Part shown: piece by piece, positions 21,286-43,816 of the stretch
How the letters are laid out: the number at the start of each line of letters is the position of its first letter
How positions within the stretch are numbered: the stretch's first letter is position 1
Sequence record: SRR20825006_252
DNA: 50,381 nucleotides
Strand: one strand, 5' to 3'
Position numbers and translations under genes: made by a program
The notes under the pieces: model-generated
What the model was told of the DNA's origin: nothing
Database searches by the model: none
The model's input: only the letters and a program-made list of their open reading frames with translations

Positions 21286-21418
21286 CTCGCCAAATGAGTG
21301 GCTACTGACCAATCCCTCCACAGAGATACTGAAGTCACCCGGAGGCCGCGCCCCTGATCGGTGCGGCCGGATCACTCTGCGCCTTGGCGCAGATTTCTGT
21401 CATTCGAAAGGGATCGAA

Positions 21419-22906: not shown

Positions 22907-22913
22907 CGCCTCC

Positions 22914-22949
22914 GCGGGCGGGTCCGAAAGGTCCCGCCCGCTTCCTTTT
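22914..22949 (+). terminator. GNRA-loop hairpin with U-rich tail between the MFS and acyltransferase genes
   Basis: GCGGGCGGGTCC-GAAA-GGTCCCGCCCGC followed by TTCCTTTT. Confidence 0.55.
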
Positions 22950-22971
22950 ATCCCACAAACAGGAGTTTACC

Positions 22972-24183
22972 ATGACACAAACCACCCCCACATCAGGACC
23001 GTTCCAAAGGTCGAAAGCCGCCAGGCCGGCGATGTCTTCCACAACCGATGGTGATCGCTTGCCACGGCTTCCCTCCTTGACCGGACTGCGCTTTTTCGCG
23101 GCTTTCGCGGTCTTTCTATTTCATGTCAGCCTTTTTACCTCGCCCTTGCCGCCCTATCAGCCGACGAACCCGTTTGGCGCGACGCCCGTGGGCGACACCA
23201 TTGAGCAGCTCTTTCGCCAACTCGGCTATGTCGGTGTGAGTTTCTTTTTCATTCTGTCCGGCTTTGTGATCACTTGGGCCACGCCCCAATGTTTTTCGAT
23301 CCGTGGCTTTATGTGGCGGCGTATGCTCAAAATCTATCCACCACATGTCGTGGTCTGGGCGATCTCGCTTGTGCTCTTCGCCGGTGTCTATACCTCGCCG
23401 CAAACCGCCATTCTCAACCTGACGCTGTTCAGCACGTTCAGCACGGACCCAACCGTCTACGTCAGTGTCAATCCGCCGTCGTGGTCCCTTTCAAGCGATA
23501 TGGTGTTTTACCTGCTGTTTCCGGTGCTCATGCCACTGGTCCGCCTGATCCCGGAACCGCGCCTTGGGCAAAGCCTGCTTGCGTTGCTTTTGGGCATGTT
23601 GGCGGTGATCCTCATCACCACTTATCTCGTCCCAAGCGAACCCAAGTCGCCGATTTCACCGATCTCCGGCACGCAGTTTTGGTTCAACTATATCTTCCCA
23701 CTGCCACGCATGTTTGAGTTTGTAATCGGCATGGTGGCGGCACGGATGTTGGTGCTGGGACGGTGGCCCCGGATCGACCTGTTGTCCTCTTGCGTGATGT
23801 TGATCGCCTCCATTGCGATCGCCAAGCATCTGCCGTTTCTCTACACCTTTGGCATTTGTTATATCTTGCCGCTGACCGCCCTGATCACCGAATGCGCGGC
23901 GCGGGATCGCGAGGGGCGCTCTCCGGTCTTTTTGACCAACAGGCTGACCCTCTGGCTTGGTCAAGTCTCCTTTGGTTTCTACCTCTGTCAGGGTGTCAGT
24001 ATCTTTTGGTTGAGCAAACAGCTTGGCCTACAGGACCTCTCTGTTGTCGGCGGCTTGACTGCCATTGCGCTGTATTTTTCGGCGTCGCTTTTGGGGGGCT
24101 GGCTCTTGTTCCGCTTTGTCGAAGAACCGTCGATGAAACTGGCGCGTTGGATTTTGTCGCGCCGCAAATTGCGCACGGCATAG
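22972..24183 (+). CDS. Acyltransferase family 3 (membrane O-acyltransferase)
   Basis: LPSLTGLRFFAAFAVFLFH, GVSFFFILSGFV, RRMLKIYP, WSLS, LGQVSFGFYL, RFVEEP. Confidence 0.9.
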   Translation: MTQTTPTSGPFQRSKAARPAMSSTTDGDRLPRLPSLTGLRFFAAFAVFLFHVSLFTSPLPPYQPTNPFGATPVGDTIEQLFRQLGYVGVSFFFILSGFVITWATPQCFSIRGFMWRRMLKIYPPHVVVWAISLVLFAGVYTSPQTAILNLTLFSTFSTDPTVYVSVNPPSWSLSSDMVFYLLFPVLMPLVRLIPEPRLGQSLLALLLGMLAVILITTYLVPSEPKSPISPISGTQFWFNYIFPLPRMFEFVIGMVAARMLVLGRWPRIDLLSSCVMLIASIAIAKHLPFLYTFGICYILPLTALITECAARDREGRSPVFLTNRLTLWLGQVSFGFYLCQGVSIFWLSKQLGLQDLSVVGGLTAIALYFSASLLGGWLLFRFVEEPSMKLARWILSRRKLRTA

Positions 24184-24246
24184 CGCATAGATGCGGTGGA
24201 CCGGGCTCGCGCCCACAAAGGGAATGGGCAACCAAACGGTTGCCCG

Positions 24247-25176
24247 TTACGCGTCATCGCGGCGCGGGGACGGTTGATCGACGCGCCCATAGCGCGCCAG
24301 ATAGTCGAGCAAAACCCGTATCCGCGCCGGAAGCGCGCTGCCGATGCCAAGCCGGACCGCATGAAAGGGCTCCACATCGCCCGGATTGTAACTTGGCAGA
24401 ACCTCGACCAATCGGCCGGCTTTCAGGTCATCCTCGATGGTGAACCGTGCCAGCCGGGCAAGGCCGAGACCGCTCAAGGCCATGTGCCGCACCCCTTCGC
24501 CATCGCTGGCCTGAAGGCGCGGATCGGCGTTCAGGTCCATCACCTCGCCATTGAGCGCAAAAGGCCAGGGTTTGTTTTTGCGCCGATAGGCAAATCCGAT
24601 CAGGGTGCATCCCGCCAAATCCTCCAGACATTGCGGCATCCCGACGCGATTCAGATACGTGGGGGCGGCGACGACCAGCCGCTGTGAGGCCCCCAACGAG
24701 CGCGCGACAAGAGCCGAAGAGGGCATTTCTCCGGCGCGAATGGCAAGGTCGGCCTGAGCCTCGATCAAATCAACGACATGATCGGTCTGACTGACCGTGA
24801 TGGAGAGTTGCGGGTATTTGGCGATCAAATCCGGGAGGATCGGATACAGCCGATGTTGGGCATATGAGGCCGATGTGGTGATGTGCACCGGTCCGGCCGG
24901 GGTCCGTCCCGCTCCGGCTTCGCGCTCTGCGGTGTGAAGGGCGGCCAGAATTTCGAGTACCCGTAAATGCAAATCCCGGCCTTCACTGGTGAGGGTCAGT
25001 GCACGGGTTGAGCGCAGGACGAGCACGGCCCCGACGCGTTCTTCCAGCCGGGCAATGGTTTTTGAGATCGCAGACGGCGTCAATCCAGACGCGCGCGCCG
25101 CCGCCGAAAAACTGCCTTCCGCGACAACCAGTGCGAAAATTTCTAGGGCCCTAAGCCGTCCGGGATCGCCAAGCAT
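24247..25176 (-). CDS. LysR-family regulator
   Basis: GSFSAAARASGLTPSAISKTIARLEERVG...RSTR; divergent from the MFS gene, with a T-N11-A-type dyad at 25175-25196. Confidence 0.92.
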   Translation of the reverse strand: MLGDPGRLRALEIFALVVAEGSFSAAARASGLTPSAISKTIARLEERVGAVLVLRSTRALTLTSEGRDLHLRVLEILAALHTAEREAGAGRTPAGPVHITTSASYAQHRLYPILPDLIAKYPQLSITVSQTDHVVDLIEAQADLAIRAGEMPSSALVARSLGASQRLVVAAPTYLNRVGMPQCLEDLAGCTLIGFAYRRKNKPWPFALNGEVMDLNADPRLQASDGEGVRHMALSGLGLARLARFTIEDDLKAGRLVEVLPSYNPGDVEPFHAVRLGIGSALPARIRVLLDYLARYGRVDQPSPRRDDA

Positions 25177-25275
25177 TGTGCCTACAATTCATAAATCCTG
25201 TTCCTTCGAGAGGTATACTCTAAAATCGGCGGCCATGACAGGGTGTGTGACATCTTCGTTCCATGGAGGACCAAA

Positions 25276-26433
25276 ATGCCACCTGCTCTCATCGCTCTCG
25301 CCCTTGGCGCCTTCGGCATCGGCGTTACTGAATTTGTCATTATGGGGTTGCTCGTCGAGGTTGCGGACAGTCTCTCGATCACCATCGCCACCGCCGGCAC
25401 GTTGATTTCTGGCTATGCGCTTGGGGTTGTGTTCGGCGCGCCAATTCTGACGATCCTGACCGCGCGTTGGCCACATCGTCAGGTTCTTTTGCTTTTGATG
25501 GCGATTTTCATTCTCGGCAATCTCGCCTGTGCTTTGGCCCCAACCTATCAAACGCTTTTGGCGGCGCGGATTGTCACCGCTTTGACCCATGGCACATTCT
25601 TTGGCGTCGGCTCGGTGGTCGCGCAAAGCCTTGTGTCGCGAGAGCGCCAGGCCTCCGCCATTTCCATTGTCTTCACCGGGCTCACCTTGGCCAATGTTTT
25701 GGGCGTGCCGTTTGGCACATGGCTTGGGCAACACACCGATTGGCGCATGACCTTTTATGCGGTCGCCGCCATTGGCGTTGTCGCCGCTGTGGTCATGGCG
25801 GTGCTGTTGCCGCGCAGCCATGCGCCAACAGAAATCAGCGATTGGCGCGAAGATTTGACCGTGTTGCGCCGGGGTGGCGTGTTGCGGGGATTGGCGATGA
25901 CCGTGTTGGGCTACGCGGGCGTGTTTACGGTCTTCACCTATATCGCCCCGCTTTTGACCCGGACGGCGGGCCTGCCTGAGGCGGCCGTGTCGCCAATCCT
26001 TTTGGGCTTTGGCTGTGGTTTGGTGTTTGGCAATGTTCTTGGTGGACGCTTTGCCGACCGGGCGCTTGGGCCAACCGTTTTGGGCAGTTTGGGCGTTTTG
26101 GCGCTGGTGCTGTTTGGCTTTGGATTTGCGGCGCAGGGGCAGGTGAGTGCCATTGTGTTGACCATTGCACTTGGGGCTGCTGGCTTTGCCACCGTCGCTC
26201 CGTTGCAAGCCTGGGTCATGGCGCAGGCCACCGGCGCGGGCCAAGCCCTTGTGGCCTCCTTCAACATCGCCGCCTTCAATCTGGGCAACGCGCTTGGCGC
26301 ATGGGTCGGGGGGTCTCTTTTGGCGGCTGGGTTTTCTTATGAGGACCTGCCGTTTGCTGCGGTTGTGTTTCCCTTGGCCGCGCTTTTGCTCGGGGCCATC
26401 TCGCTGAGGCGCGATGCCCGCGTTCCTGCCTAA
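25276..26433 (+). CDS. 12-TMS MFS transporter (DHA1, YdhP/YtbD-like)
   Basis: ALGAFGIGVTEFVIMGLL, HGTFFG, GLTLANVLGVPFG, NIAAFNLGNALGAW; RBS GGAGG before ATG 25276. Confidence 0.9.
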   Translation: MPPALIALALGAFGIGVTEFVIMGLLVEVADSLSITIATAGTLISGYALGVVFGAPILTILTARWPHRQVLLLLMAIFILGNLACALAPTYQTLLAARIVTALTHGTFFGVGSVVAQSLVSRERQASAISIVFTGLTLANVLGVPFGTWLGQHTDWRMTFYAVAAIGVVAAVVMAVLLPRSHAPTEISDWREDLTVLRRGGVLRGLAMTVLGYAGVFTVFTYIAPLLTRTAGLPEAAVSPILLGFGCGLVFGNVLGGRFADRALGPTVLGSLGVLALVLFGFGFAAQGQVSAIVLTIALGAAGFATVAPLQAWVMAQATGAGQALVASFNIAAFNLGNALGAWVGGSLLAAGFSYEDLPFAAVVFPLAALLLGAISLRRDARVPA

Positions 26434-26459
26434 CATCTTATCTTCAAAGGACTATCATC

Positions 26460-27500
26460 ATGGACTATCGTCAATTGGGCCAATCCGGTCTGCGCGTCCC
26501 CGTTCTGAGTTTCGGCGCGGGCACCTTTGGCGGGACCGGCCCGCTCTTTTCCAACTGGGGACAAACCGAGGTGGATGAGGCGCGCGCGTTGATCGACCTG
26601 TGCCTCGACGCGGGGGTGACCCTGTTTGACACGGCGGATGTGTATTCCGCCGGGCGGTCGGAAAGCATTCTGGGTGCGGCTCTTGAGGGACGGCGTGACG
26701 CGGTTTTGATCTCGACCAAGACAGGCTTGCCGATGGGCGACGGGCCGGACGAATGGGGCGTGTCGCGTGGGCGTCTTGTGCGATCGGTGGAGGCGGCATT
26801 GACGAGATTGCGCACCGATCGCATCGATATTTTGCAACTCCACGCCTATGATAGCCACACCCCGCCGGAGGAGATTTTGAACACCATCGACATGTTGATG
26901 CGGTCCGGCAAAGTGATCCATTGGGGGGTTTCAAACTATCCGGGATGGGCGCTTATGCAGCTTTTGGAGCGGGCCGATCAGATGAACGTGCCGCGCCCTG
27001 TGGTGCATCAGGTCTATTACTCTTTGGTGGGACGGGATTACGAATGGGACCTCATGCCGCTTGGCGCGCATGAGGGGGTGGGGGCGATGATTTGGAGCCC
27101 GCTTGGATGGGGTCGTTTGACCGGAAAATTGCACCGTGGAGGTACGGTGCCCGCCGTCAGCCGATTGCACGAAACCGCCTCCATGGGCCCGCCGGTCGAT
27201 GACGCATTGCTCTATGATGTGTTGGATGTGCTCTTTGAGATCGCGGCGGAAACCGGGCGTAGCGTGCCACAGGTGGCGATCAATTGGCTCACCCAGCAAC
27301 CCACGGTTTCGAATGTGATCATCGGCGCGCGCAACCGGGCGCAGCTTGTGGACAATCTTGGCGCCGTGGGCTGGTCACTCGATGCCGAACAATCTGCCCG
27401 TTTGACCCGTGTTTCGGAACGCGATGCGGCCTATCCGGCGGCGCAGTATCGTCGCCAAGAAGGCTTTGCCCGCCTGTCTGCCCCGCTTGTGAAGGCTTGA
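26460..27500 (+). CDS. Aldo/keto reductase (Tas/aryl-alcohol dehydrogenase-like)
   Basis: YRQLGQSGLRV, FDTADVYS, ISTK, LRTDRIDILQLH, GVSN, WSPLG. Confidence 0.92.
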   Translation: MDYRQLGQSGLRVPVLSFGAGTFGGTGPLFSNWGQTEVDEARALIDLCLDAGVTLFDTADVYSAGRSESILGAALEGRRDAVLISTKTGLPMGDGPDEWGVSRGRLVRSVEAALTRLRTDRIDILQLHAYDSHTPPEEILNTIDMLMRSGKVIHWGVSNYPGWALMQLLERADQMNVPRPVVHQVYYSLVGRDYEWDLMPLGAHEGVGAMIWSPLGWGRLTGKLHRGGTVPAVSRLHETASMGPPVDDALLYDVLDVLFEIAAETGRSVPQVAINWLTQQPTVSNVIIGARNRAQLVDNLGAVGWSLDAEQSARLTRVSERDAAYPAAQYRRQEGFARLSAPLVKA

Positions 27501-27525
27501 GCCAGAGCAACACCTGAGAGAAAGC

Positions 27526-27553
27526 TGGGGGCGGAGGTCGCCCCCATGATTTT
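27526..27553 (+). terminator. Terminator-like hairpin after the AKR gene
   Basis: TGGGGGCG-GAGGT-CGCCCCCA followed by TGATTTT. Confidence 0.45.
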
Positions 27554-27586
27554 GACAGCACCGCGAGAGGCGGCAAGGATATTTCA

Positions 27587-28006
27587 ATGATTGAACTTGA
27601 CCATGTGACACTTCGGACCGCGCATTTGGCGGCAACGCGCCAGTTCTTTATCGACCTTTTTGATCTGGAGGAGGGGGAGCGGCCCCTTGAGATCCAACAA
27701 ATTCCGGGGCATTGGTTGTATTCCGGCGATGCGCCTGTGGTGCATCTCATCGGCAGCTATGGCCGTGGCACCCCCATTGATGGCGAGATCATTGATCACA
27801 TTGCCTTTCGCAGACGGGGCTATCACGATTTCATCGCGCGGCTCAAAGCGCGCCGTTTGCCTTATTCTTGTATGTCACTGAAAGGCTTGGCCGAGCATCG
27901 CGTGTTCTTGCGTGCCCCCGGTGGGCAATTGATCGAAACGGTGTTTCGCGGCGAAGACGCGCGCCGGGCCTTTGATGACCTTGGGTTAGAGCCGACCTAC
28001 GGATGA
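27587..28006 (+). CDS. VOC/glyoxalase-family protein
   Basis: LDHVTLR, GHWLY, VHLI, IDHIAF, FLRAPGGQLIE: His/His/His/Glu VOC metal-ligand pattern. Confidence 0.85.
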   Translation: MIELDHVTLRTAHLAATRQFFIDLFDLEEGERPLEIQQIPGHWLYSGDAPVVHLIGSYGRGTPIDGEIIDHIAFRRRGYHDFIARLKARRLPYSCMSLKGLAEHRVFLRAPGGQLIETVFRGEDARRAFDDLGLEPTYG

Positions 28007-28178
28007 CCGGCGGCCCCGTCCAAGGGGGCTTCGCATGTGCAGCAATCACGTTTTGGAAAGGATGTCTCAACACGGGGACGACTACTCGAGGTTCGGGAAT
28101 CGACGTTTCATGAGGGCAGGGCGGTACCGCAAAGCCCGACAGGAATTTTACGTCATCCCAATCTCGAAGGAGTGTTTC

Positions 28179-29852
28179 ATGACCACAGTGTCCCGTCGCA
28201 GCTTTATTGGCTCCGCTTTCGCCGCAGGTGCGGCCGCATCCGGGGTGACCATCCGACCCGCTCATGCCGACACATCGACCGTCGCCCCCGCGCCAATTGG
28301 AGTGCAAACCGGGCAGCGGATCACGGCAGAGGACGCGCGCTTTCAGGCGCTGCGCACGGGCAACAACCAGCGGTTTTTGTCGACACCAGACTATGTGCGC
28401 ATGATCCACACACCACAAGATGCCTTGCTGGCCACCCAAGAAGCGCTTGATCTGGGCAAAAAATTTACCGTCCGCTCTGGCGGGCATTGTTTTGCTGATT
28501 TCGTCTGCAATCCCGAAACCGAAGTGATCCTTGATATGGCGCCGATGCGGGCGGTTGGGTTTGATGAGACGGTTGGTGCGTTTTATGCCGAGCCGGGTGG
28601 GATGCTGATTGATGTCTATGAACGCCTTTACAAAGGCTGGGGTGTGACCCTACCGGCGGGCATTTGTTATTCGGTGGGCGTGGGCGGGCATATTGTTGGC
28701 GGCGGCTACGGGCTTTTGTCGCGCAAATATGGGCTGACCGTGGATCACCTCTCTATGGTGGAGGTGGTTGTCGTGGACGAACACCGGCAAGCACATCTGG
28801 TGCGCGCCAGCTCGGACCCGGAGGATCCGAACCATGATCTGTGGTGGGCGCATACCGGTGGTGGGGGCGGCAATTTCGGCGTTGTCACGCGCTACTGGTT
28901 CCGCACGCCCGGTGCCGAAGGCAGCGACCCCGGCGCGCAATTGATCCGCCCCCCGGCCGAAGTTCTGGTCAGCGCGGTTGCGTTTGACTGGGATCAGTTG
29001 ACGGAGACGAATTTCACCCGGCTGATCGAAAACTTCAGCCATTGGCACGCGAGCAACAGTGCCCCCGACAGCCCATACACCTCCCTGAGCAGCCTTTTTA
29101 ACGTCAGCCATCGCGCCACGGGTGCCATGGGGATGTTCACCCAAGTCGATGGCGACGATCCCAATGCCGCCACTCTTCTTGCGGAGTATATGTCGGCGCT
29201 GCTTGAGGGCACCAACATCGTTCCGCGCCCGATGCTCACCCCGATCGGTGAACTTCCCGCGATGCCGGATTACCTCGAAGGGGCGCGTCTGCCTTGGCTG
29301 CAGGCGACCAAACTTGTGGGCTCGAACAATCCGACCATCACCAATCCCACATCGCGCGGCGGTCACAAATCGGCCTATATGAAACAGGGCTTTGATCGCC
29401 GCCAAATTGCCGCGCTTTACAAACACATGAGCCGCGAAGACTTCACCAACCCCGACACGATGTTGGTGCTGTTTTCCTTTGGCGGTGCGGTGAATGCCCA
29501 AGCCCCGGATGCCACCGCCAACGCTCAGCGCTCCTCGATCTACAAAATGTGTTTCCAGACCTTTTGGAGCGATCCAAAAGACGACGCGTTTTACCTTGGC
29601 TGGTTGCGCGACATTTACGAAGACGTTTTTGCCGCAACGGGCGGTGTCCCGGTGCCCAACGAACAGATGGACGGGTGCTACATCAACTATCCCGATCGCG
29701 ATATGGCCGACCCTGCGCGCAACCGCTCCGGCGTGCCATGGTCCACGCTCTACTACAAAGACAATTACCCGCGGCTGCAAAGCGTCAAGGACCGCTACGA
29801 CCCCGGCAATGTCTTTTCCCATAGCCTCAGCATTCGCAACTCCTCGACCTGA
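28179..29852 (+). CDS. Tat-exported BBE-like (VAO/PCMH) flavin oxidase, AknOx/Dbv29/hexose oxidase-like
   Basis: SRRSFI twin-arginine signal ending AHA; VRSGGHC (His-FAD); AGICYSVGVGGH (Cys-FAD); WWAHTGGGGGNFGVVT; YINYPD; LYYKDNYPRL..VK..YDP.NVF. RBS AAGGAG before ATG 28179. Confidence 0.9.
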   Translation: MTTVSRRSFIGSAFAAGAAASGVTIRPAHADTSTVAPAPIGVQTGQRITAEDARFQALRTGNNQRFLSTPDYVRMIHTPQDALLATQEALDLGKKFTVRSGGHCFADFVCNPETEVILDMAPMRAVGFDETVGAFYAEPGGMLIDVYERLYKGWGVTLPAGICYSVGVGGHIVGGGYGLLSRKYGLTVDHLSMVEVVVVDEHRQAHLVRASSDPEDPNHDLWWAHTGGGGGNFGVVTRYWFRTPGAEGSDPGAQLIRPPAEVLVSAVAFDWDQLTETNFTRLIENFSHWHASNSAPDSPYTSLSSLFNVSHRATGAMGMFTQVDGDDPNAATLLAEYMSALLEGTNIVPRPMLTPIGELPAMPDYLEGARLPWLQATKLVGSNNPTITNPTSRGGHKSAYMKQGFDRRQIAALYKHMSREDFTNPDTMLVLFSFGGAVNAQAPDATANAQRSSIYKMCFQTFWSDPKDDAFYLGWLRDIYEDVFAATGGVPVPNEQMDGCYINYPDRDMADPARNRSGVPWSTLYYKDNYPRLQSVKDRYDPGNVFSHSLSIRNSST

Positions 29853-29947
29853 CGGCGACACTATTCGGACTGAAACTCTGCGTCACACGTTGCCCCAGCC
29901 AACGGTGTCTCTCACCGTGCCTTCCTCCCCCTTAGAAAGGACCTCCC

Positions 29948-31183
29948 ATGAAAGATTCTGTGAACAACACTATGAAAAACCCCGTGAAAAACGTCGCTTT
30001 CGTTTTTGGAACCCGCCCCGAAGCCATCAAAGTCGCCCCGGTGATCCGGGCGATGCAGGACCGGTCGGACATGCGCCCCATCGTGATTTCCACCGGGCAG
30101 CATCGCGATATGTTGCAATCGGCCATGACGGAATTTGACCTCAAGGCGGATGCCGATCTCAACATTATGAAACCGGGGCAGGGGCTTGATCAAATCACCG
30201 CCCGGATCATCACCGGGCTGGGTGCCCCGCTCAAGGACTTCGGCATCGACGCGGTTGTCGTCCATGGCGATACCGCCTCGACCTTTGCCGGAGCGCTTGG
30301 TGCTTTTTACAACCGTGTGCCTCTGATCCACCTCGAAGCAGGGCTGCGCAGTGGCCATATTTCATCGCCCTTCCCCGAAGAAGCGAACCGCAAACTGGTC
30401 TGTCAAATCTCTGATCTGCACCTTGCCCCCACTTTGGTGAGTGCCGACAATCTGTTGCATGATGGGGTGGACCCCGACCGCATCCGGGTGACGGGCAACA
30501 CCGTTGTCGATGCGGTCCGTTGGGCCGCCGCCCAGCCGGTGCCGGAGCATCAAGACGACCCGCTGGCCTTTCTTGAGGGCCCTGACTCCCGACCGATCAT
30601 CATTGCCACCGTCCATCGCCGCGAAAGCTGGGGCGCACCGATGCGCGAGATCGCCCAGGCGCTTGTCGATATTGCCCGCACCCATGATGTGCGCATCGTG
30701 ATGCCGCTGCATCTCAACCCGGTGGTCCGTGAGGCGATCCTTCCGATCGTGTCGGGCGAAGACAATATTTACCCGATCGAACCGCTGCCCTATCGCCAGT
30801 TTTGCCGCCTGATGATCAAGGCGCATCTGATCGTTTCGGACAGTTCTGGCGCAGAAGAGGAAGGCCCCTCCCTCGGCAAACCCACGCTTGTTTTGCGCGA
30901 TGTGACCGAACGGCCCGAGGCGATCACTGCGGGGGCCGCCGTTCTGATCGGGCGGACCCGTCAGGCGGTGCGAACCAAAGTGAGCGCGCTTTTGACCGAT
31001 CACATTCTCTATGACGGCATGACCCGCGCCAGCGGCGTTTACGGTGATGGTCAGGCCACTGCGCGGGTTTTGGAGGCGCTTTCGGACCTGTTCACCGGGG
31101 TCATTTCAAATGCCATTCCGGGGATTGATTTCGGGGCAATGCCGGGCAAACCGCAGTTCGCCCAGACTCAGCCCGCCGCCTGA
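29948..31183 (+). CDS. wecB: UDP-N-acetylglucosamine 2-epimerase (non-hydrolysing type)
   Basis: FGTRPEAIK, TGQHRDML, VHGDT, HLEAGLRS, PFPEEANR, VTGNTVVDA, TVHRRE, LRDVTERPE; alternative start at 29972. Confidence 0.88.
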   Translation: MKDSVNNTMKNPVKNVAFVFGTRPEAIKVAPVIRAMQDRSDMRPIVISTGQHRDMLQSAMTEFDLKADADLNIMKPGQGLDQITARIITGLGAPLKDFGIDAVVVHGDTASTFAGALGAFYNRVPLIHLEAGLRSGHISSPFPEEANRKLVCQISDLHLAPTLVSADNLLHDGVDPDRIRVTGNTVVDAVRWAAAQPVPEHQDDPLAFLEGPDSRPIIIATVHRRESWGAPMREIAQALVDIARTHDVRIVMPLHLNPVVREAILPIVSGEDNIYPIEPLPYRQFCRLMIKAHLIVSDSSGAEEEGPSLGKPTLVLRDVTERPEAITAGAAVLIGRTRQAVRTKVSALLTDHILYDGMTRASGVYGDGQATARVLEALSDLFTGVISNAIPGIDFGAMPGKPQFAQTQPAA

Positions 31184-31194
31184 TCTGACAGGGT

Positions 31195-31221
31195 GTCGAA
31201 GCCGGGGGAACCGGCTTCGAC
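31195..31221 (+). other. Intercistronic 11-bp perfect hairpin upstream of the AUDH-cupin gene
   Basis: GTCGAAGCCGG-GGGAA-CCGGCTTCGAC with no U-tract. Confidence 0.55.
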
Positions 31222-31241
31222 GGTTCGCGAAAGGAGATGAA

Positions 31242-32063
31242 ATGACCACGCTCACAACACCGCAAAGGGACTTTGGCCTGACTGGGGAGCAAACAGATGG
31301 TGACATCCGAGCGCTGAGTTTCAGCACGCCCAATCTGCCGGTCCGGGTGTTTCAAAACGGGGGGCATGTCGAGATTGGCAGTCGCGCCATCGTGGTGAAC
31401 CCTGATGTGACCCCCGTGCCGTTCTATCCGTCGGGCCTACGGGACCATATTGCGCCGCTTGGGGCGGCGTTTTTGCGCGAGGTCTCGCTGCGCAGCGACA
31501 CGACGCTTGTCACTTTGGCGTTGGATCGGCTGTCGGTGCCGGCGGATCTGTGTTCCGCGCCCGGATGGCGCAGGCTGGATACATTGCCGGGTATGGCGTC
31601 TGTGCCGGGGGCTGCGGGTCTGCCCCTGTTTCGATCCCCCAGAGATCGGGTGACAACGATTCAGGCCACCCCGGATCGCCTTGCACCGACCCTGCCGCCG
31701 GGTCCGCCGCAGTGTTGGGGCGTGTTTATGAACCTTTGGTTTGCCCCTGCGGGCACGTCCTGTCTGATCCACAACAGCCACCCGTTTCTTGAATACCATG
31801 TGCAAATTTCAGGGGATGGCGCGATGCAAAAATTTCGCCGCAATGACCCGAGCACTCTGTACGAAAATCAATATCTCGCCCCCGGCGCAGCGCACGGCAT
31901 TTACGCGGTTCAACCCGCTGGGGACGGCAGCTTTCTTTACCCATGGCACCAGTATGTCGCACGCACCGATTGCCTCTGGCTTGCCGTTGAACTTGTGCCC
32001 GAAGGCCCCGCGCCAAGGCCACACACATCGGACACTCACACTGGGCAGTGTTGCCACCACTGA
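31242..32063 (+). CDS. Stand-alone aldos-2-ulose dehydratase/isomerase (AUDH) cupin-domain protein
   Basis: NLWFAPAGTSCLIHNSHPFLEYH...AHG...YPWHQY...WLAVE resembles the AUDH isomerase cupin motifs (HNH..E.H, YPWH); RBS AAGGAG before ATG 31242. Confidence 0.72.
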   Translation: MTTLTTPQRDFGLTGEQTDGDIRALSFSTPNLPVRVFQNGGHVEIGSRAIVVNPDVTPVPFYPSGLRDHIAPLGAAFLREVSLRSDTTLVTLALDRLSVPADLCSAPGWRRLDTLPGMASVPGAAGLPLFRSPRDRVTTIQATPDRLAPTLPPGPPQCWGVFMNLWFAPAGTSCLIHNSHPFLEYHVQISGDGAMQKFRRNDPSTLYENQYLAPGAAHGIYAVQPAGDGSFLYPWHQYVARTDCLWLAVELVPEGPAPRPHTSDTHTGQCCHH

Positions 32064-32077
32064 AGGAGACGACAGAG

Positions 32078-33382
32078 ATGAATATTCAGAAAACCCCCGC
32101 CCGTCCGACCTCCGAAGCCGGGCCTCAGGCAAAGACATCCCCGCTTATGATTCCGGTGTTTGAACCCGAATTGGTGGCGGATCATTTGCGCGACGGCTAT
32201 TGGCTTGAAGCGCCGGATCTCAATCAGGATGGCAAGCCCGATCTGTTTGGATACGGGCTGCGGCTTGGTGAGATTTATTGGTATCAAAATGGCGATTGGA
32301 CCCGTCGTTTGATCACCGATGGCGTCAGAATGCCGGTTGGGGGCGACTACGCCGATATTTCCGGCAATGGCTATCCCGACCCGATCATCTGTTATGATCT
32401 TTACGGCGATATCGGCACCATCGTGGATGCAAAAGAGACCGGGGGCAAAATCGACTGGATCGAGAATCCGGGACCGGGGGTAGAAGAGACCAAGCGATGG
32501 ACACGCCATTATATTGGTCGCGCCACCGGGATGCATCGTTTGCGCGCCGGGTATTTCACCCAGACCGAGCGGCTTGAAATCATTGGGTTTCCGATTGTGA
32601 CCAAGGGCAATGTGCATGGGGTGCTGCCGCTGGTGATGTTCACGCAACCCGACGATCCTCTGACGGCGGAGGAATGGCCGATGACCACCATCGATGACAT
32701 GAGCTACCGCATGTTGCACGGGGCAGAGAAAAAGCGCGGCCTCATCCCCGGTTCGGATCGTGACTCTGTCTTGGTCGCCTCGGACGAAGGGGTGACGTGG
32801 ATTTACTATGATGCGGACACAGCCACTTGGCAGCATGTGCGGATCGGCACAGGCGAGACTTCGCAGTTCGAGGAAACCGGGTTTAAGGGCAGTGGCGATC
32901 TTGATGCAGGGCGCATTGATGGCGTTCCGATGAGCTATGTCGCCGCGATCGAGCCGTTTCACGGCAACACGGTCGCCATCTATACCCGTGACCCCGAAAG
33001 CGATCCGGCCACCGCCGGTTGGACCCGGCAGGTTCTGGATGTCTACGGCGACCCCAATGAAAATGGCGAAGGCCCCGGCCATCAAATCCTCTGCGCGGAT
33101 TTCGATGGGGATGGCGATGAAGAGTTCCTTGTGGGGCTGCGCGGACCATGGCCGTGGCAGGGGGTCATGTATTACAAAATGGTCGATAAAAAAGCCGGTG
33201 TTTTCGCCAAATGGCGGGTCTCCGATGATTCCGTCGCGCGGATCGCCATGGCTGATTTTAATGGGGATGGGCGACCGGATTTCGCCACCATCGCCTATTC
33301 CGTCGACAATTATTATCGCGCCAAACAGGCGCGGTTGATGGTATTTCGCAACCGCATTGGTGATGAAGAACCGCTTCGGTAA
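32078..33382 (+). CDS. Aldos-2-ulose dehydratase beta-propeller (FG-GAP repeat) protein
   Basis: DGYWLEA, GMHRLRAGYFT, MLHG, IEPFHGN, GPGH, DFDGDGDEE, IAYSVDNYY and repeated DxxxDG blades, as recalled for the fungal AUDH dehydratase domain; RBS AAGGAG before ATG 32078. Confidence 0.8.
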   Translation: MNIQKTPARPTSEAGPQAKTSPLMIPVFEPELVADHLRDGYWLEAPDLNQDGKPDLFGYGLRLGEIYWYQNGDWTRRLITDGVRMPVGGDYADISGNGYPDPIICYDLYGDIGTIVDAKETGGKIDWIENPGPGVEETKRWTRHYIGRATGMHRLRAGYFTQTERLEIIGFPIVTKGNVHGVLPLVMFTQPDDPLTAEEWPMTTIDDMSYRMLHGAEKKRGLIPGSDRDSVLVASDEGVTWIYYDADTATWQHVRIGTGETSQFEETGFKGSGDLDAGRIDGVPMSYVAAIEPFHGNTVAIYTRDPESDPATAGWTRQVLDVYGDPNENGEGPGHQILCADFDGDGDEEFLVGLRGPWPWQGVMYYKMVDKKAGVFAKWRVSDDSVARIAMADFNGDGRPDFATIAYSVDNYYRAKQARLMVFRNRIGDEEPLR

Positions 33383-33430
33383 AGTCCCCTCTGGAACGAA
33401 ACATCATCGATGCATCTGACTAAAAATGAT

Positions 33431-33464
33431 CTTTGCACCGGGCGGGGCGCTGTCCGGTGCAAAG
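33431..33464. terminator. Hairpin terminator between the convergent AUDH operon and the catabolic operon
   Basis: CTTTGCACCGGGC...GTCCGGTGCAAAG, a 13-bp stem with one G-U pair. Confidence 0.65.
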
Positions 33465-33517
33465 CTGTGTGATCCGATGTTGCTGTACAGCCTCACAACG
33501 CAGCGATGATCCGACCC

Positions 33518-34348
33518 TTACGGGTCAGAACGGGCTTTGGCGATCAGCGCCCTGGATCGTGTGAGCGCTTCTGCGGCGCGGCTTTGGGCATCCACGGTTT
33601 TGGCCTTGTCGATCTGGGCCACCTCGACACTCAAAACAATGTCACGCGGCAAGGCGCGCACCATGGCGATCAGATCAATCCCGCCGTCGCCGGGCAAAAG
33701 CCGTGCGCCTCGGGCAATCTCGATCATCCCGGCATCGGACGGATCATATGGCTTAGGACCATCACAAAGCTGGGCGTAGTGAATGAGCGCGGGGGGCAGG
33801 TTTTGAATCTGCGCGACCGTCCCGCCCGCCCGGTCCCAATGCAGCGCGTCGATCAGAACGCCGCCGTTGGCGCACCCCGCCGTTTCCACGATACGTTGCG
33901 CCTCGGGCAGGGTTTTGACCCCGGTCCAGGGCATGAACTCCAGATCCCCGGTCAGGTCATATTCGGCTGCGAGATCGCAAAAGGCGGCAAAGGTTTCGGT
34001 GAGCCGATCATGATTGGTATCATCGCCCGCAACAAGCACGTTGCGCGCGCCAAGCCTTTGACCGAGGGCTAGAAAATCACGGAAATCCTCGACATCCGTG
34101 TCTGGTTTAAGCCGGGCGATTTCAATATCGGCAATGCCGATCCCAGTCTCATCAAGGGCCGCTTTCACCAAAGCTTCAACTGCCGGATCAGACAAGATCG
34201 GATAGGGGGCCTCGGTTGGGGCGGCGGGCAAAAACCGCAGCCCCACAAGGTCATACCCCGTGGCCGCCGCAATGCGCACGGCCTCATGAGGCGGGACCTC
34301 ATGCGTGGTCAAAAAAGCAAGAGAGAATTTATGGGGCATGGCACTCAC
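33518..34348 (-). CDS. Sugar phosphate isomerase/epimerase (xylose-isomerase-like TIM barrel)
   Basis: AAATGYDLVGLR, LEFMPW, LIDALHW, YAQLCD, RLLPGDG, SVEV metal-ligand pattern; alternative start at 34339. Confidence 0.85.
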   Translation of the reverse strand: MSAMPHKFSLAFLTTHEVPPHEAVRIAAATGYDLVGLRFLPAAPTEAPYPILSDPAVEALVKAALDETGIGIADIEIARLKPDTDVEDFRDFLALGQRLGARNVLVAGDDTNHDRLTETFAAFCDLAAEYDLTGDLEFMPWTGVKTLPEAQRIVETAGCANGGVLIDALHWDRAGGTVAQIQNLPPALIHYAQLCDGPKPYDPSDAGMIEIARGARLLPGDGGIDLIAMVRALPRDIVLSVEVAQIDKAKTVDAQSRAAEALTRSRALIAKARSDP

Positions 34349-34956
34349 TTCAGCGGTGAAAACGGCAAGGGAAGGGCGATGGCACTGGTCATCTGTGGGG
34401 TGAGCCAGTCAGGGCCGCCTTTGGCCGGCCATTTGCCGTCCGCGACCGATTGGCTGCGCGCCTTGATGCGGGCCTCAAGCGAGCTGTAGGGCCAGATTTG
34501 CGTGACACGCGGCGCACCATCAAGGCCCCACATCGCCATGGTCAGCGGCGAATATTCCGAACGTGCCGGCATAGCGCCGCGCCATTTGTCTTGGGTGACG
34601 GACACTCCGTTCAGCTTGGCCTTATAGGTGCGAAATTCGTAGATCGGCCCATAGGTGCCGGGGGTGATCGGGGCCATGAAATCAAAGGGTTTGTAGCTGT
34701 CAAACCGCAGGTCGACCAAATGCTCCATACAGCCCATCGGATTGTCGGACATCACAGCGCGTTCGCGTTCGTCCATCATCTCGTCCAGCGTCTCGAAACC
34801 GCGCAAAACATAGACCTCGTTGAGGGTGCCGATGTCGGTGCCAAATGCCCCGAGCAGCGTGCCTTTGCCCGCTGCAAGCCAATTTTGCAGCCCGTCCGAG
34901 GCCTTTCCTGCGCCAAAGATTACGGTCTTGAGCGTTGCGATTTCGTAATAGGCCAT
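34345..34956 (-). CDS. NIPSNAP-family protein (two domains)
   Basis: YYEIATL...GTLNEV and PIYEFRTY...IWPYSSLEAR...LPLPFSPLK; RBS AAAGGA before ATG 34956. Confidence 0.88.
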   Translation of the reverse strand: MAYYEIATLKTVIFGAGKASDGLQNWLAAGKGTLLGAFGTDIGTLNEVYVLRGFETLDEMMDERERAVMSDNPMGCMEHLVDLRFDSYKPFDFMAPITPGTYGPIYEFRTYKAKLNGVSVTQDKWRGAMPARSEYSPLTMAMWGLDGAPRVTQIWPYSSLEARIKARSQSVADGKWPAKGGPDWLTPQMTSAIALPLPFSPLK

Positions 34957-34957
34957 G

Positions 34958-36706
34958 TCATGCATCCTTTGTGTGGTGTGAAAGAGAAGGGGTCAGGCCT
35001 TTGATTGGTTGACCTGAAACTCGGCGGCCGACGATGTAGCCAAACGTCATGCCCGGCCCGAGGGTGATGCCGCCAGACGGGTAATGCCCGCCCATGATCG
35101 AGGCGGCGTCATTGCCGATGGCATAGAGCCCGGGCGTCGGCGCTCCGTTTTGCCCAAGCACCTGCCCGTCGGCGGTGGTTTTGATCCCGGCAAATGTACC
35201 AAGGCTGCCGGGCACGAGTTTGACCGCATAAAACGGCCCGCGCTCCAATGGCCCCAAGGTCGGGTTTGGACCTTTGTGTTTGGCCCAGCCTTGGACGCGG
35301 TTGTACAGTGACGCGCCGCGGTGAAACACCGGGTCGTGACCTTCGCGCGCGCCGTCATTGAACCGCGCGATGGTCTGTGCAAGCGCCTCGGGGGGCAAGC
35401 CGCACTGCGCCGCCAAATCTGTGATCCGTCGCCCGCGTTTGAGGTAGCCGGAGCGCAGATAGCGGGTGAGCGGGAAGGGAAAGGGCTTGGCCCAGCCGAT
35501 GCCAAATTGCCTCTGCGCCCGGTGATCACAGATCAGCCAAGCCTCCGGCGCGCAGCCCTTTGGCGTCACCGCAAACAGGGCTTTCATGAACTCATGATAG
35601 CTGTCGGCCTCGTTGACGAACCTCTGCCCACGCATATCCACCGCGATGAATCCGGGTTTGGCGCGATCAATGAGATGAGGGAAATTTTTGAACCCACCCT
35701 CACCATCCGGGACGCGGGACACGGGCGCCCATGCGGCGGGTTCAGCGAGGCTCATGTCAAGCGCCGCACCAACCGTTTCAGCCAAACGCAAGCCGTCGCC
35801 GGTGTTTGATTTGGGCGCAGCAGAGGCATGCGCGATGGTGTCGGTGTGGGCAAAACTGTGTGTTTGTCGCAGGGCATCATGCGGGTAGCCGCCCGTCGCA
35901 AGCACCACACCTTTGCGGGCGGTGATGCGGATTGGCGTCCCTTGTCGGATCACGGATGCACCCACGATCCGACCCTTATCATGGCGCAGGCGGGTCACCG
36001 GACTGTCATGCCAAAGCTGAACCCCGCTGTCCGCCGCCCCTTTCAAAAGCTGCGCCACAAGGGCATTGCCGCCCACAAGCTGCATCGAACGCCGATAGCG
36101 CGCCAGATCATAGAGATGTTTGGCCAGCCGTTTGGTGACATGCCACAGCGCGCTTGGGGAGCGGGTCGCATTGAAAAAATGTGCCATATCCGCACCGCTG
36201 CCAATGCCCATGCCCCAGAGCGACACGACATCGAGTGGCGGCCGCAGCCGCGCCATCAAAGGGCCAAGTTGACGCCCATCATAGGCCGCGGCGGTCACGG
36301 ATCGCCCGCCTTCGGCGGCACCGTCATGGGCGTAAAAGTCAGGCACATGATTGCCATCAACCCAGGTCATGACGCCGATCTCTTCGAGAAAGCGCAGCAT
36401 GTCGGGACCGTTTTGTAAGAACGTCTCTATGCGCGGGTCATTGGCGCGATTGCCCAACAGGGCGCGCAGATAGCGGCGGGGTTTGGCGTCGGGCTCAGTG
36501 ATCCCGGCGCGGATCGCCTGTGGGTTCTGTGGAATCCAAAGCCAGCCGCCGGACCATGCGGAGGTACCGCCGAAAACGCCGGTTTTCTCGGCCACAATGA
36601 CCTCAAGCCCTGCCTTCGCAGCCGTGATCGCGGCACACAATCCCGCTGCGCCTGATCCAACGATCAGAACGTCGCAGGCGGTGACGCCCGCCGTTTCGCT
36701 GTCCAT
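34958..36706 (-). CDS. FAD-dependent oxidoreductase, KstD/fumarate reductase flavoprotein-like (paralogue 1)
   Basis: DVLIVGSGAAG, GGTSAWSGG, GVVLATGG, RFVNEADSY, GLYAIGN, YPSGGITLGPG. Confidence 0.9.
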   Translation of the reverse strand: MDSETAGVTACDVLIVGSGAAGLCAAITAAKAGLEVIVAEKTGVFGGTSAWSGGWLWIPQNPQAIRAGITEPDAKPRRYLRALLGNRANDPRIETFLQNGPDMLRFLEEIGVMTWVDGNHVPDFYAHDGAAEGGRSVTAAAYDGRQLGPLMARLRPPLDVVSLWGMGIGSGADMAHFFNATRSPSALWHVTKRLAKHLYDLARYRRSMQLVGGNALVAQLLKGAADSGVQLWHDSPVTRLRHDKGRIVGASVIRQGTPIRITARKGVVLATGGYPHDALRQTHSFAHTDTIAHASAAPKSNTGDGLRLAETVGAALDMSLAEPAAWAPVSRVPDGEGGFKNFPHLIDRAKPGFIAVDMRGQRFVNEADSYHEFMKALFAVTPKGCAPEAWLICDHRAQRQFGIGWAKPFPFPLTRYLRSGYLKRGRRITDLAAQCGLPPEALAQTIARFNDGAREGHDPVFHRGASLYNRVQGWAKHKGPNPTLGPLERGPFYAVKLVPGSLGTFAGIKTTADGQVLGQNGAPTPGLYAIGNDAASIMGGHYPSGGITLGPGMTFGYIVGRRVSGQPIKGLTPSLSHHTKDA

Positions 36707-36773
36707 TGTCCTGCTTTCGTTTCACAGCGCGAAAGTCGTTCGCGCATTCGGGTCAGATGACAGGACCTTGCGG

Positions 36774-37601
36774 TCAGCCAGCCTGACGGGTTTCGGTTTC
36801 TGCGGGCAGGGCCCGGTTGCGGTTGAAAAAGAAAGACGCCTCTGCCGCCCCGCCAATTTCATCGGCGGCTTCGCGCAGAAGCGGGTGGAATTGGTCCATC
36901 AATTCGGGTGTCACACGCACACCCGGACCGGCGATGGACAGACAGCCGATCACAGCATGGTCTTCGCTGCGAAAAATGGGAACAGCCATCGCCGCCATCC
37001 CGGCATGATAGCTGTCGGACATGGTGGCATAGCCGCGTTTGCGGGTGTCAGCCAGAGAGGCCAGCACCTCTGGAATCGAGGTAGGCGCGCCCGGCCCCAT
37101 GGCAAAATCCGCCCGCAGCCCTTGCGCACCAATTTTCTCAAGCGCTTGCTCATCCGTCAGTGTTGACAGCCAGGCATGTCCACCCGCCGAGCCGGCCAAA
37201 TGCACCTTGATCCCCTGTTCACGACCGGGGTCATAGCGCAGGCCCGCAACCGCGCCCTGCGCCACGCCGACCCAGACAAGATCCTCGCCATCAATCACGG
37301 ACAGGCGAACGAGTTCGCGCGAGTCCGCCGCCAAGCGATCGAGGATGGGCTGCGCAATGTCGGGCACGCCGGTGCGGGCCAAAAACGCCAACCCGATGCC
37401 TGCGAGTTTGATGGTGAGAGCGTAATCGCCTTGGTTCCTGAGTTGTCGCACATAGCCGTATTGCGACAGTTCTTTGAGCAATCGATGCGCTGCCGAGGCG
37501 GGCATATCCAGCTCGCTCGCGATCGCGCTCACTTGAACGCCTTCGGGATGTTTCCCAAGAAGTTCAAGGATCGAAAGGGTTCTCTCCATCACACCGGACA
37601 T
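36774..37601 (-). CDS. IclR-family transcriptional regulator
   Basis: ERTLSILELL...IASELDMPASAAHRLL..L...GYV; C-terminal RKRGYA...AMAVPI...CLSIAGP. Confidence 0.92.
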   Translation of the reverse strand: MSGVMERTLSILELLGKHPEGVQVSAIASELDMPASAAHRLLKELSQYGYVRQLRNQGDYALTIKLAGIGLAFLARTGVPDIAQPILDRLAADSRELVRLSVIDGEDLVWVGVAQGAVAGLRYDPGREQGIKVHLAGSAGGHAWLSTLTDEQALEKIGAQGLRADFAMGPGAPTSIPEVLASLADTRKRGYATMSDSYHAGMAAMAVPIFRSEDHAVIGCLSIAGPGVRVTPELMDQFHPLLREAADEIGGAAEASFFFNRNRALPAETETRQAG

Positions 37602-37604
37602 CGC

Positions 37605-38687: not shown

Positions 38688-38734
38688 GTGGGTCCTCCCT
38701 CAGACAGGTGTTTCGGAGCACCTGTGCTTTCCAC

Positions 38735-38852
38735 AACTATATCAACCAAAGCTTAAAATAAAACAAGATTTAAAAGTTGAAAGAGTTTCTATTTTAAGAC
38801 ATGCTGATGAAAGAATTAGGGCGTTTGGTATAAAAGTCTTGTTAAATAAAAG
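38735..38852. promoter_or_regulatory. AT-rich divergent promoter region with an imperfect palindrome (candidate IclR operator)
   Basis: Sharp A/T enrichment; AAAGTTGAAA-GAG-TTTCTATTTT at 38773-38795. Confidence 0.5.
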
Positions 38853-38876
38853 GCTTGAGCGCTCAGGGAGGACTCT

Positions 38877-41554: not shown

Positions 41555-41691
41555 GAGGGCGACGACCCCGACTTTGGGGTCTAGCGAATTGTCCAAGTTA
41601 TATGGAGTGCCGTCCATTCTTAAATCGGCAAAGGATTGCAATTTTGAGGGCGAGGTGACGTTGCGTGAGGCGCGTCAGGGAGGAGGATGGG

Positions 41692-42489: not shown

Positions 42490-42559
42490 CAGCAATGAAA
42501 GCGGGAAAACAAAACACATAGCCCCGTTTCAACGACCAGCATCAATCAGGGAGGATACT

Positions 42560-43687: not shown

Positions 43688-43700
43688 GACAGGCCACCCG

Positions 43701-43729
43701 CCCCGCGCCTCATATGACGGGGCGCGGGG
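43701..43729 (+). other. Stem-loop after binding-protein copy 1
   Basis: CCCCGCGCCTC-ATATGAC-GGGGCGCGGGG. Confidence 0.55.
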
Positions 43730-43816
43730 TGATCCGGCAAAGGCGCGCTATGACGCCAGCCGATTGCACAGCTCTGATGATCCAAATCATCAGGGGAACA
43801 CATGGGAGGAATGGAT

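Follow-up and report, generated by a model that had tools for sequence, protein, structure and literature searches.

A stretch of 50,381 nt from sequence record SRR20825006_252, here called the window at its full length, was found to contain a group of genes at positions 21419–33382 that we read, with slightly better than even confidence, as a compact, horizontally spread biosynthetic cassette. It would be built on a WecB-type epimerase and a split aldos-2-ulose dehydratase/isomerase (AUDH), and it is predicted to produce a small molecule that is derived from a sugar and secreted by the cell, probably an enone or pyranone with reactive properties. The core of the cassette appears to be formed by three enzymes that always occur together, i.e., WecB, an AUDH-type propeller, and an AUDH-type bicupin. 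All three are predicted to be cytoplasmic, because their N-termini contain no signal peptide. The original prediction had assigned the core genes, together with the gene of a flavin-dependent oxidase, to an operon of four genes:

28179–29852, plus strand: BBE-like flavoprotein oxidase (VAO/PCMH-type) with a Tat-type signal, 557 aa counted from the ATG
29948–31183, plus strand: WecB-type non-hydrolysing UDP-GlcNAc 2-epimerase, 411 aa
31242–32063, plus strand: predicted bicupin, counterpart of the middle domain of AUDH, 273 aa
32078–33382, plus strand: AUDH-type seven-bladed beta-propeller, putative metal-dependent sugar dehydratase, 434 aa

The four open reading frames are indeed co-oriented, each is preceded by a motif resembling a ribosome-binding site, and a hairpin is present at 33431. 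The Shine-Dalgarno-like motifs that were read from the sequence are AAGGAG 6 nt 5′ of the ATG at 28179, AAGGA before 29948, AAGGAG before 31242, and GAAGGAG before 32078. The limitation to four genes was not upheld: the conserved set comprises about seven genes, reaches upstream to 21419, and includes two putative exporters and a membrane acyltransferase.

The conservation of the gene set was analyzed in species-representative genomes, which were searched with the propeller (55 loci) and with the bicupin (98 relatives, 80 of which were kept); in addition, 17 proteins of the window were searched against all loci with tblastn. Removal of duplicates left 110 distinct loci. The bacterial AUDH-type propellers fell into three context classes that correspond to three groups of a quick tree (SH-aLRT 94, 100, and 98), and class A, to which the window belongs, was defined by a WecB gene next to the pair of propeller and bicupin (74 loci). 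WecB and the bicupin were found in all 74 class-A loci and the propeller in 73. Acyl_transf_3 and the BBE oxidase were each present in 65, a DHA1-type transporter of the major facilitator superfamily (MFS) in 58, and a DHA2-type MFS transporter in 26. The expected co-conservation of oxidase, WecB, cupin, and propeller was therefore found. The only class-A locus without a propeller (L066) ends about 1.5 kb past the bicupin, and the propeller is located on another contig (L021) of the same metagenome-assembled genome (MAG). The DHA2-type homologues are 51–62% identical, the Acyl_transf_3 homologues 34–51%, and the latter are mostly encoded directly 3′ of the propeller. A LysR homologue was detected in 7 of the 74 loci, mostly proteobacterial ones.

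The carriers of class-A loci are mostly Streptomyces and other Actinomycetota; the others are Serratia, Rahnella, Brenneria, Phytopseudomonas, Paraburkholderia, an Azospirillaceae MAG, and a Pseudoruegeria MAG. In Cryobacterium and Actinoplanes, the gene set is kept and the order is changed. The Pseudoruegeria locus (L057) has the exact order of the window, including an aldo-keto reductase and an open reading frame with a glyoxalase fold, with identities of 80, 78, 67, 84, 78, 55, and 82%; among the class-A loci, it is the only one with the latter two genes (78% and 67%, respectively). The near-identical genome G001, which has 83% of the sampled words in common with the window and encodes a propeller with 98% identity, was the only one of 201 sampled genomes of the host's family that contained the propeller. 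In a quick, unrooted IQ-TREE analysis, the proteobacterial propellers were placed inside the actinobacterial radiation with supports of 91–94. Because of the presence of the propeller in 1 of 201 family genomes and this placement, the cassette looks as if it had been acquired horizontally.

The sequence of the propeller places it in the AUDH propeller family. It matches the Pfam family AUDH_beta_propeller (PF22301) with an E-value of 1.9e-50 and 171.6 bits (cut-off 27), and its residues 21–424 align with residues 15–431 of the 900-residue AUDH of Phanerochaete chrysosporium (PDB 4a7k, E 2.2e-68). The motifs GMH153R, H214, PFH295GN, GPGH335, and IAYSVDNYY, which had been listed in the original prediction, are all present. 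According to a hand count on the HMMER alignment, His153, His214, His295, and His335 align with His155, His215, His295, and His337 of 4a7k. All four histidines are among the 60 columns that were invariant across 51 propellers of all classes and four fused eukaryotic AUDHs. In view of the PF22301 score and the four aligned histidines, the protein does not look like a generic FG-GAP propeller that lacks the AUDH site. A divergent case was observed in Brenneria rubrifaciens (L084:7438–8685), in which a more divergent propeller match (55%) contains an internal stop codon and lies about 750 bp from the bicupin gene. Oxidase and acyltransferase are also missing from this locus, and the cassette may be decaying.

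For the 273-aa protein, several lines of evidence point to a bicupin that corresponds to the middle domain of AUDH and belongs, as a distant member, to the AUDH cupin family. When the profile of the bicupin family was compared with that of the four fused eukaryotic AUDHs, a probability of 95.9% and an E-value of 6e-9 were obtained across residues 155–250, and a repeat with hhalign gave 96%; the motifs NLWFAPAGT.C.IHN..H.F.E.H and YPWHQY were matched between the two groups. Weak matches to the Pfam family AUDH_Cupin (PF18637) occurred family-wide, i.e., in 9 of 10 members, and an AlphaFold2 model of the protein was confidently predicted to be all-beta (pLDDT 86, pTM 0.83), with the caveat that the rmsd was large (7.4 Å). 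The predicted cupin motifs IHNSHPFLEYH and YPWH were found, and the C-terminal cupin carries H177, H180, E184, H186, and H236. Sequence searches of PDB chains with the single protein or with a 10-sequence profile yielded no match to the bicupin. The bicupin is also the least conserved core gene: it is 55% identical between the window and Pseudoruegeria (L057:6001–6783), where the neighboring genes reach 78–84%, and it is 32–42% identical to Streptomyces homologues, compared with 66–73% for the propeller.

Taken together, the PF22301 match, the alignment with 4a7k, and the profile-profile match of the bicupin support the view that propeller and bicupin are a split counterpart of fungal AUDH, as had been proposed. 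The differences in architecture are considerable. The enzyme of P. chrysosporium (PDB 4a7k/4a7y/4a7z) is a single polypeptide of about 900 aa that consists of the propeller, the bicupin, and a C-terminal lectin domain, whereas the window encodes two separate proteins without a lectin domain, and the bicupin gene precedes the propeller gene. The split was found in all 74 class-A loci. The genomic partner also differs, as it is a UDP-GlcNAc enzyme instead of a glucan lyase or a pyranose oxidase. As AUDH is defined by its architecture as a single chain that includes a lectin domain, the pair falls outside this definition. A complex prediction for propeller and bicupin scored 0.01 (mark 0.34) and returned no answer, which says nothing for or against binding.

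Fused proteins with propeller and cupin do exist: only six were found among proteins of 761–2170 aa when the 8000 candidates that share most words were scored, and four of them have source names of eukaryotes. According to precomputed Pfam domains, AUDH propeller and cupin are fused to the C-terminal domain of a GMC oxidase in one protein (P0166, 1387 aa) and to a domain of the alpha-amylase family in another (P0168, 1331 aa), so that supplier and AUDH are combined within one polypeptide. A 974-aa open reading frame in a Streptomyces locus (L001) was rejected as a fusion of bicupin and propeller, as it results from read-through in a wrong frame, which is typical of high-GC DNA.

The two other context classes of bacterial propellers are relevant for the predicted chemistry. 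Fungal AUDH is supplied by two routes. In the first, which operates in fungi and red algae, an alpha-1,4-glucan lyase of family GH31 produces 1,5-anhydrofructose, which AUDH converts to ascopyrone M and microthecin; in the second, pyranose 2-oxidase produces glucosone, which AUDH converts to cortalcerone. To our knowledge, AUDH chemistry has been characterized only in fungi, and microthecin is also known from a red alga. The loci with bacterial counterparts of these suppliers are as follows:

L029–L032, L034, L036, L037, L039, L040, L044, and L046: class B loci, e.g., L034:5109–9275
L041–L043, L085, L086, L111, L112, and L125: GH31-linked loci of class C, e.g., L043:3517–10282

Class B consists of 11 Streptomyces loci that contain the propeller, a GMC oxidase, and a xylose-isomerase-like TIM barrel but no bicupin; in most of them, a GH15 gene is located upstream. 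The GMC oxidase is close to fungal pyranose 2-oxidase (E about 1e-105 for the 1tt0 group and 7.5e-117 for 9fl2). Judged from its gene content, class B seems to correspond in bacteria to the glucosone/cortalcerone route of fungi, with the TIM barrel perhaps in place of the cupin. Class C consists of 18 loci from cyanobacteria, Bacteroidota, Bacillota, Paenibacillus, and others. Thirteen of them have the propeller gene first and the bicupin gene after it; in the other 5, some of which are on short contigs, the bicupin alone was found. A GH31 gene is located nearby in 8 of the 18 loci, which are from cyanobacteria, Bacteroidota, and Bacillota. The propeller precedes the bicupin, as in the fungal domain order, in 7 of these 8, and none was found in L111. 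The GH31 protein of L043 matched the lyase 2x2h with an E-value of 4.6e-37, which is no better than for alpha-glucosidases, and maltase-glucoamylase scored higher, so that the protein may be a lyase or a hydrolase. The GH31-linked loci are regarded as candidates for a bacterial anhydrofructose pathway. Classes B and C reproduce the two known inputs of fungal AUDH, and by analogy this supports the view that the bacterial propellers perform AUDH-type chemistry on C2-functionalised sugars.

The likeness of the window to the fungal pathways would thus be that a maker of a C2-functionalised 1,5-anhydro or 2-keto sugar is encoded beside an AUDH-type dehydratase/isomerase. It differs from them in that the supplier is WecB, so that the input would be an amino sugar, and in the additional genes for putative exporters, for a BBE oxidase that is predicted to be secreted, and for a membrane acyltransferase.

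The epimerase scored 400.7 bits against TIGR00236, clearly above the equivalog cut-off of 210.15, and it matched Pfam Epimerase_2 with an E-value of 3.6e-97. A hydrolysing enzyme of the NeuC type was rejected (TIGR03568, 78.8 bits versus a cut-off of 235.9). The best structural relatives included 1vgv/1f6d (5e-102) and KasQ (7vyy, 5.8e-97). A hand count on the alignment to 1f6d showed that the equivalents of K15, D95, E117, E131, and H213 of the E. coli enzyme are kept, which are listed as catalysis-related in section 3.3 of PMC8869731. In the near-identical genome G001, this WecB is the only Epimerase_2 gene. UDP-GlcNAc 2-epimerases eliminate UDP and thereby form 2-acetamidoglucal, as described in PMC4793188. 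For KasQ, a biosynthetic homologue from Streptomyces that primes the formation of kasugamycin, section 3.1 of PMC8869731 reports 23.8% free glucal, 64.4% UDP, and 9.2% UDP-ManNAc after 12 h in vitro, and it describes that released glucal is not taken back. KasQ (PDB 7vyy/7vz6/7vza) resembles the protein of the window in that a WecB-type enzyme starts a secondary-metabolite pathway, with an E-value of about 5e-97 between the two. The cases differ in that UDP-ManNAc is the on-pathway product proposed for kasugamycin, whose later enzymes have no relationship to AUDH.

The oxidase contains the Pfam domains FAD_binding_4 and, at the C-terminus, BBE, both above their cut-offs. Its closest solved structures were TamL (1.1e-150), AknOx (4e-144), hexose oxidase 2wdw (2.8e-142), CrmK (3.7e-140), GilR (1.5e-114), and N-acetylhexosamine oxidase 7zzk (8.3e-85). 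The histidine of the GGHC motif and the cysteine of the GICYSVG motif align with the same residues of TamL, which we take to be involved in bicovalent binding of FAD. The oxidase thus resembles the BBE-like tailoring oxidases that act late in antibiotic pathways of actinomycetes (TamL, AknOx, Dbv29-type hexose oxidase, CrmK, GilR) both in similarity, with E-values from 1e-150 to 1e-114, and in keeping the His and Cys residues. It differs from them in its location, as they belong to polyketide or glycopeptide clusters and the oxidase of the window belongs to a small sugar-only cassette. AknOx is a secreted sugar oxidase that acts at a late step.

The assignment as a flavin oxidase was confirmed by the flavoprotein domains. 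The N-terminus has the twin-arginine-type motif SRRSFIG, a hydrophobic stretch, and an AHA cleavage site, as would fit the predicted Tat export. The score against the Tat model TIGR01409 stayed below the cut-off (14.0 versus 16.7 bits). An RR motif with a hydrophobic stretch was present in 79 of 79 class-A oxidase homologues, a number from which duplicates were not removed. Because of this ubiquitous signal, the absence of the oxidase near 9 of the 74 loci, and the presence of WecB and bicupin in all 74, the oxidase seems to carry out a tailoring step that is late, dispensable, and located outside the cytoplasm.

The further genes of the cassette and of its version in the window are located upstream of the oxidase gene:

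21419–22906, plus strand: MFS transporter 2, DHA2 or EmrB/LmrA-like efflux type, 495 aa
22972–24183, plus strand: membrane acyltransferase of the Acyl_transf_3 family, 403 aa
24247–25176, minus strand: LysR-family regulator, divergent from the MFS gene, with Pfam HTH_1 and LysR_substrate
25243–26433, plus strand: MFS transporter 1, DHA1 or Cmx/AraJ-like efflux type, 396 aa from a GTG, with an ATG 11 codons in
26460–27500, plus strand: aldo-keto reductase, lineage-specific addition, 346 aa
27587–28006, plus strand: open reading frame with weak matches to the glyoxalase/bleomycin-resistance (VOC) fold, lineage-specific addition, 139 aa

Both transporters match Pfam MFS_1 (2.7e-59 for transporter 2 and 3e-40 for transporter 1), and their best NCBIfam matches are to the efflux models TIGR00711 (191.7 bits, below the cut-off of 230.2) and Cmx/CmrA (312 bits, below the cut-off of 400), respectively. 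The acyltransferase matches PF01757 across residues 35–380 (1.7e-32, 113.3 bits versus a cut-off of 31). The reductase belongs to Pfam Aldo_ket_red (6.2e-63) and is nearest to the models for Kv-beta, L-glyceraldehyde-3-P reductase, and methylglyoxal reductase, with all scores below the cut-offs. The matches of the 139-aa protein to Glyoxalase_4 (E 0.0046) and Glyoxalase (E 0.0068) are also below the cut-offs. In other loci, an MmyB-like regulator occurs in place of LysR (Streptomyces, L001), a sugar nucleotidyltransferase adjoins WecB (L002), and RND efflux genes are present (L016). Together with the efflux-type MFS transporters, these genes are further signs of secondary metabolism.

From these data, the following pathway can be proposed. 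WecB, the only enzyme of the set able to bring in carbon, would act on UDP-GlcNAc and supply 2-acetamidoglucal or, less directly, UDP-ManNAc. The propeller would dehydrate the 1,5-anhydro sugar, or its 2-imino or 2-keto tautomer, through its conserved set of histidines as in fungal AUDH, and the bicupin would isomerise the resulting enone, as the cupin site of AUDH does with ascopyrone M. The product would be exported by an MFS pump. Outside the cytoplasm, the Tat-exported oxidase would oxidise a remaining hydroxyl group, and the Acyl_transf_3 enzyme would O-acylate the product. In the lineage of the window, the aldo-keto reductase and the glyoxalase-fold protein may shield the producer from the electrophile; the presence of these two genes would fit such a self-protection. 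The chemical basis of the proposal is that 2-acetamidoglucal corresponds to 2-hydroxyglucal, i.e., to the enol form of 1,5-anhydrofructose, with an N-acetylamino group in place of the hydroxyl group, and that alpha-1,4-glucan lyase yields 2-hydroxyglucal/1,5-anhydrofructose. By virtue of this correspondence, WecB would formally be the equivalent, on the side of the amino sugars, of the putative glucan lyase of class C. In its most specific form, i.e., with WecB as a "2-acetamidoglucal synthase" that feeds free glucal to the split AUDH and with N-acetylamino analogues of ascopyrone or microthecin as products, the proposal is tentative and on balance doubtful.

Several results weigh against the proposed cassette and pathway. 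WecB looks fully canonical, and its sequence gives no sign of glucal release. The invariant residues of the propeller are the same in all three context classes, and only six positions are class-A-specific; this uniformity is more compatible with a 2-keto sugar than with an N-acetyl enamide as substrate. For the histidines of AUDH, the roles as base or Zn ligands are presumed by us. For the bicupin, the match to PF18637 has an E-value of 0.012 and 15.5 bits, below the cut-off of 25, and its N-terminal half has no sequence similarity to AUDH (hhalign probability 0.2%). The conserved set contains no amidase, deacetylase, or other deamidating enzyme. Tailoring is not universal, as oxidase and acyltransferase are each absent near 9 of the 74 class-A loci, some of which are at contig ends. 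Contigs of three seawater RNA libraries and of one library of uncertain type cover parts of 21300–33600 and are 90–99% alike, but they come from relatives and may include DNA, and thus cannot show transcription or operon structure. What the data show are the homologies, the co-conservation, the export signal of the oxidase, and the efflux-type transporters; the steps of the pathway and its product are predicted from them.

Three other explanations were weighed. The original prediction had placed the oxidase first, so that a keto-sugar would arise first, possibly out of a GlcNAc/ManNAc derivative that WecB provides, and propeller and cupin would then turn it into an antimicrobial pyranone. This order has a precedent in pyranose 2-oxidase, which feeds fungal AUDH, and in the 11 Streptomyces loci that pair a homologue of that enzyme with the propeller; moreover, the BBE oxidase occurs in 65 of 74 loci, and its relatives include the sugar oxidisers AknOx, hexose oxidase 2wdw, and N-acetylhexosamine oxidase 7zzk. 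Nevertheless, it is unlikely. The RR signal was found in all 79 oxidases and the core enzymes lack such a signal, so that an intermediate would have to exit and re-enter the cell, and both MFS proteins are exporter-like. The nine loci without an oxidase nearby retain the three core genes, and C2 of an N-acetylhexosamine bears an acetamido group, which makes the direct formation of a 2-ulose impossible by established chemistry.

A catabolic or detoxifying route for anhydro- or keto-sugars from the environment, e.g., 1,5-anhydrofructose, glucosone, or oxidised fragments of chitin, seems quite improbable. Here, the secreted oxidase would act on a sugar outside the cell, the MFS proteins would import it, and its processing would be left to propeller, bicupin, and reductase. 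Such a route would account for the aldo-keto reductase and the glyoxalase-fold protein, the GH31-linked loci could be catabolic, and the host occurs in marine metagenomes, where algal sugars are common. However, reductase and VOC-fold gene were found in only 1 of the 74 other loci, and the UDP-sugar epimerase, present in 74 of 74 loci and the sole such gene in G001, would be left unexplained. The conserved set lacks a kinase, an aldolase, a sugar ABC or PTS uptake system, and a catabolic dehydrogenase, and the transporters are nearest to efflux families. The inclusion of two putative exporters and a membrane acyltransferase in the conserved set instead favors the biosynthesis of a secreted product over catabolism. 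Less probable still is a modification of cell-envelope glycans, with UDP-ManNAc from WecB for a surface polymer, O-acetylation by the Acyl_transf_3 protein, and a lectin-like or structural role of the propeller. Both WecB and Acyl_transf_3 proteins commonly serve envelope glycans, as is established for these families, and propellers of the FG-GAP/VCBS type are often binding modules (PMC8023676). The conserved set, however, contains no glycosyltransferase, flippase, or polymerase, and none of the residues that are invariant in the catalytic AUDHs is lost from the propeller, which has no signal peptide and is always accompanied by the AUDH-type bicupin.

Three structural elements were found in or next to the gene group:

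27526–27546, terminator-like on both strands: GC-rich hairpin 3′ of the reductase gene, top of the terminator scan
31195–31221, plus strand: inverted repeat between the wecB stop codon and the ribosome-binding site of the bicupin gene, read from the sequence
33431–33464, plus strand: hairpin with a 15-bp stem at the end of the unit

The hairpin at 27526–27546 has 9 pairs, including 7 G-C pairs, and is followed by TGATTTT in the terminator scan. As it is located between the reductase gene and the VOC-fold gene, the MFS and reductase genes may be a transcription unit separate from the genes from oxidase to propeller. The repeat at 31195–31221 is perfect, with 11-bp arms (GTCGAAGCCGG and CCGGCTTCGAC) and a 5-nt loop, and could act as an attenuator within the unit or have a function in processing or stability. 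The hairpin at 33431–33464 has a folding energy of −27.3 kcal/mol (z −4.3), which was equalled by none of 200 shuffles; it has no T tail and is absent from the list of the terminator scan. Contigs of two of the seawater RNA libraries (X17 and X18), which are 90–95% alike to the window, join 28867 to 31925 and 30839 to 32719 and thus skip most of the 3′ end of the oxidase gene, wecB, and the bicupin gene. They may reflect deletions in a relative or artefacts of the assembly.

An open reading frame on the opposite strand (25189–26436) is longer than the gene for MFS transporter 1 on the plus strand. It was rejected as a gene, as it has no Pfam match and the plus-strand MFS gene is conserved. No tRNA was found in the window, and no match to 25243–33450 was found in the plasmid collection. 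The downstream region 33518–44947 is not conserved with the cassette. It encodes a xylose-isomerase-like TIM barrel, a NIPSNAP protein, two KstD/ChcC-like FAD_binding_2 flavoproteins, IclR, a GFO/IDH/MocA oxidoreductase, an NAD epimerase/dehydratase, a shikimate-dehydrogenase-like protein, and two Peripla_BP_6 binding proteins; from this gene content, it looks like a catabolic cluster for alicyclic acids or cyclitols.

A full-text literature search, with subscription journals and supplementary files outside its reach, turned up no paper on this gene combination or on a bacterial AUDH pathway, in agreement with the original prediction. Within the searchable literature, the coupling of WecB, a predicted secreted BBE oxidase, Acyl_transf_3, and putative exporters to AUDH thus has no described counterpart. 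In summary, the results indicate that the AUDH-type enzyme of bacteria consists of two proteins and occurs in three or more distinct genomic contexts, two of which mirror known fungal routes. In the third, that of the window, which was found in more than 70 genomes from phyla that are far apart, the AUDH-type pair is combined with UDP-GlcNAc metabolism, putative exporters, and predicted tailoring enzymes outside the cytoplasm. This combination is a small and portable candidate pathway to new sugar-derived enones or pyranones, a group of compounds that attracts interest for antimicrobial and antioxidant uses and as chiral building blocks. It also points to a possible physiological role of 2-acetamidoglucal, which has long been known to be formed by UDP-GlcNAc 2-epimerases as a side product. 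If the glucal route were true, the end product after the oxidase and the acyltransferase might be, for example, a 5-acetamido-4-pyranone, similar to kojic acid with NHAc for a hydroxyl group. The cassette would then represent a third, previously unrecognised entry into the pyranone chemistry of anhydro sugars, and its products would be a new family of secreted, amino-sugar-derived metabolites common to Streptomyces and several proteobacteria.

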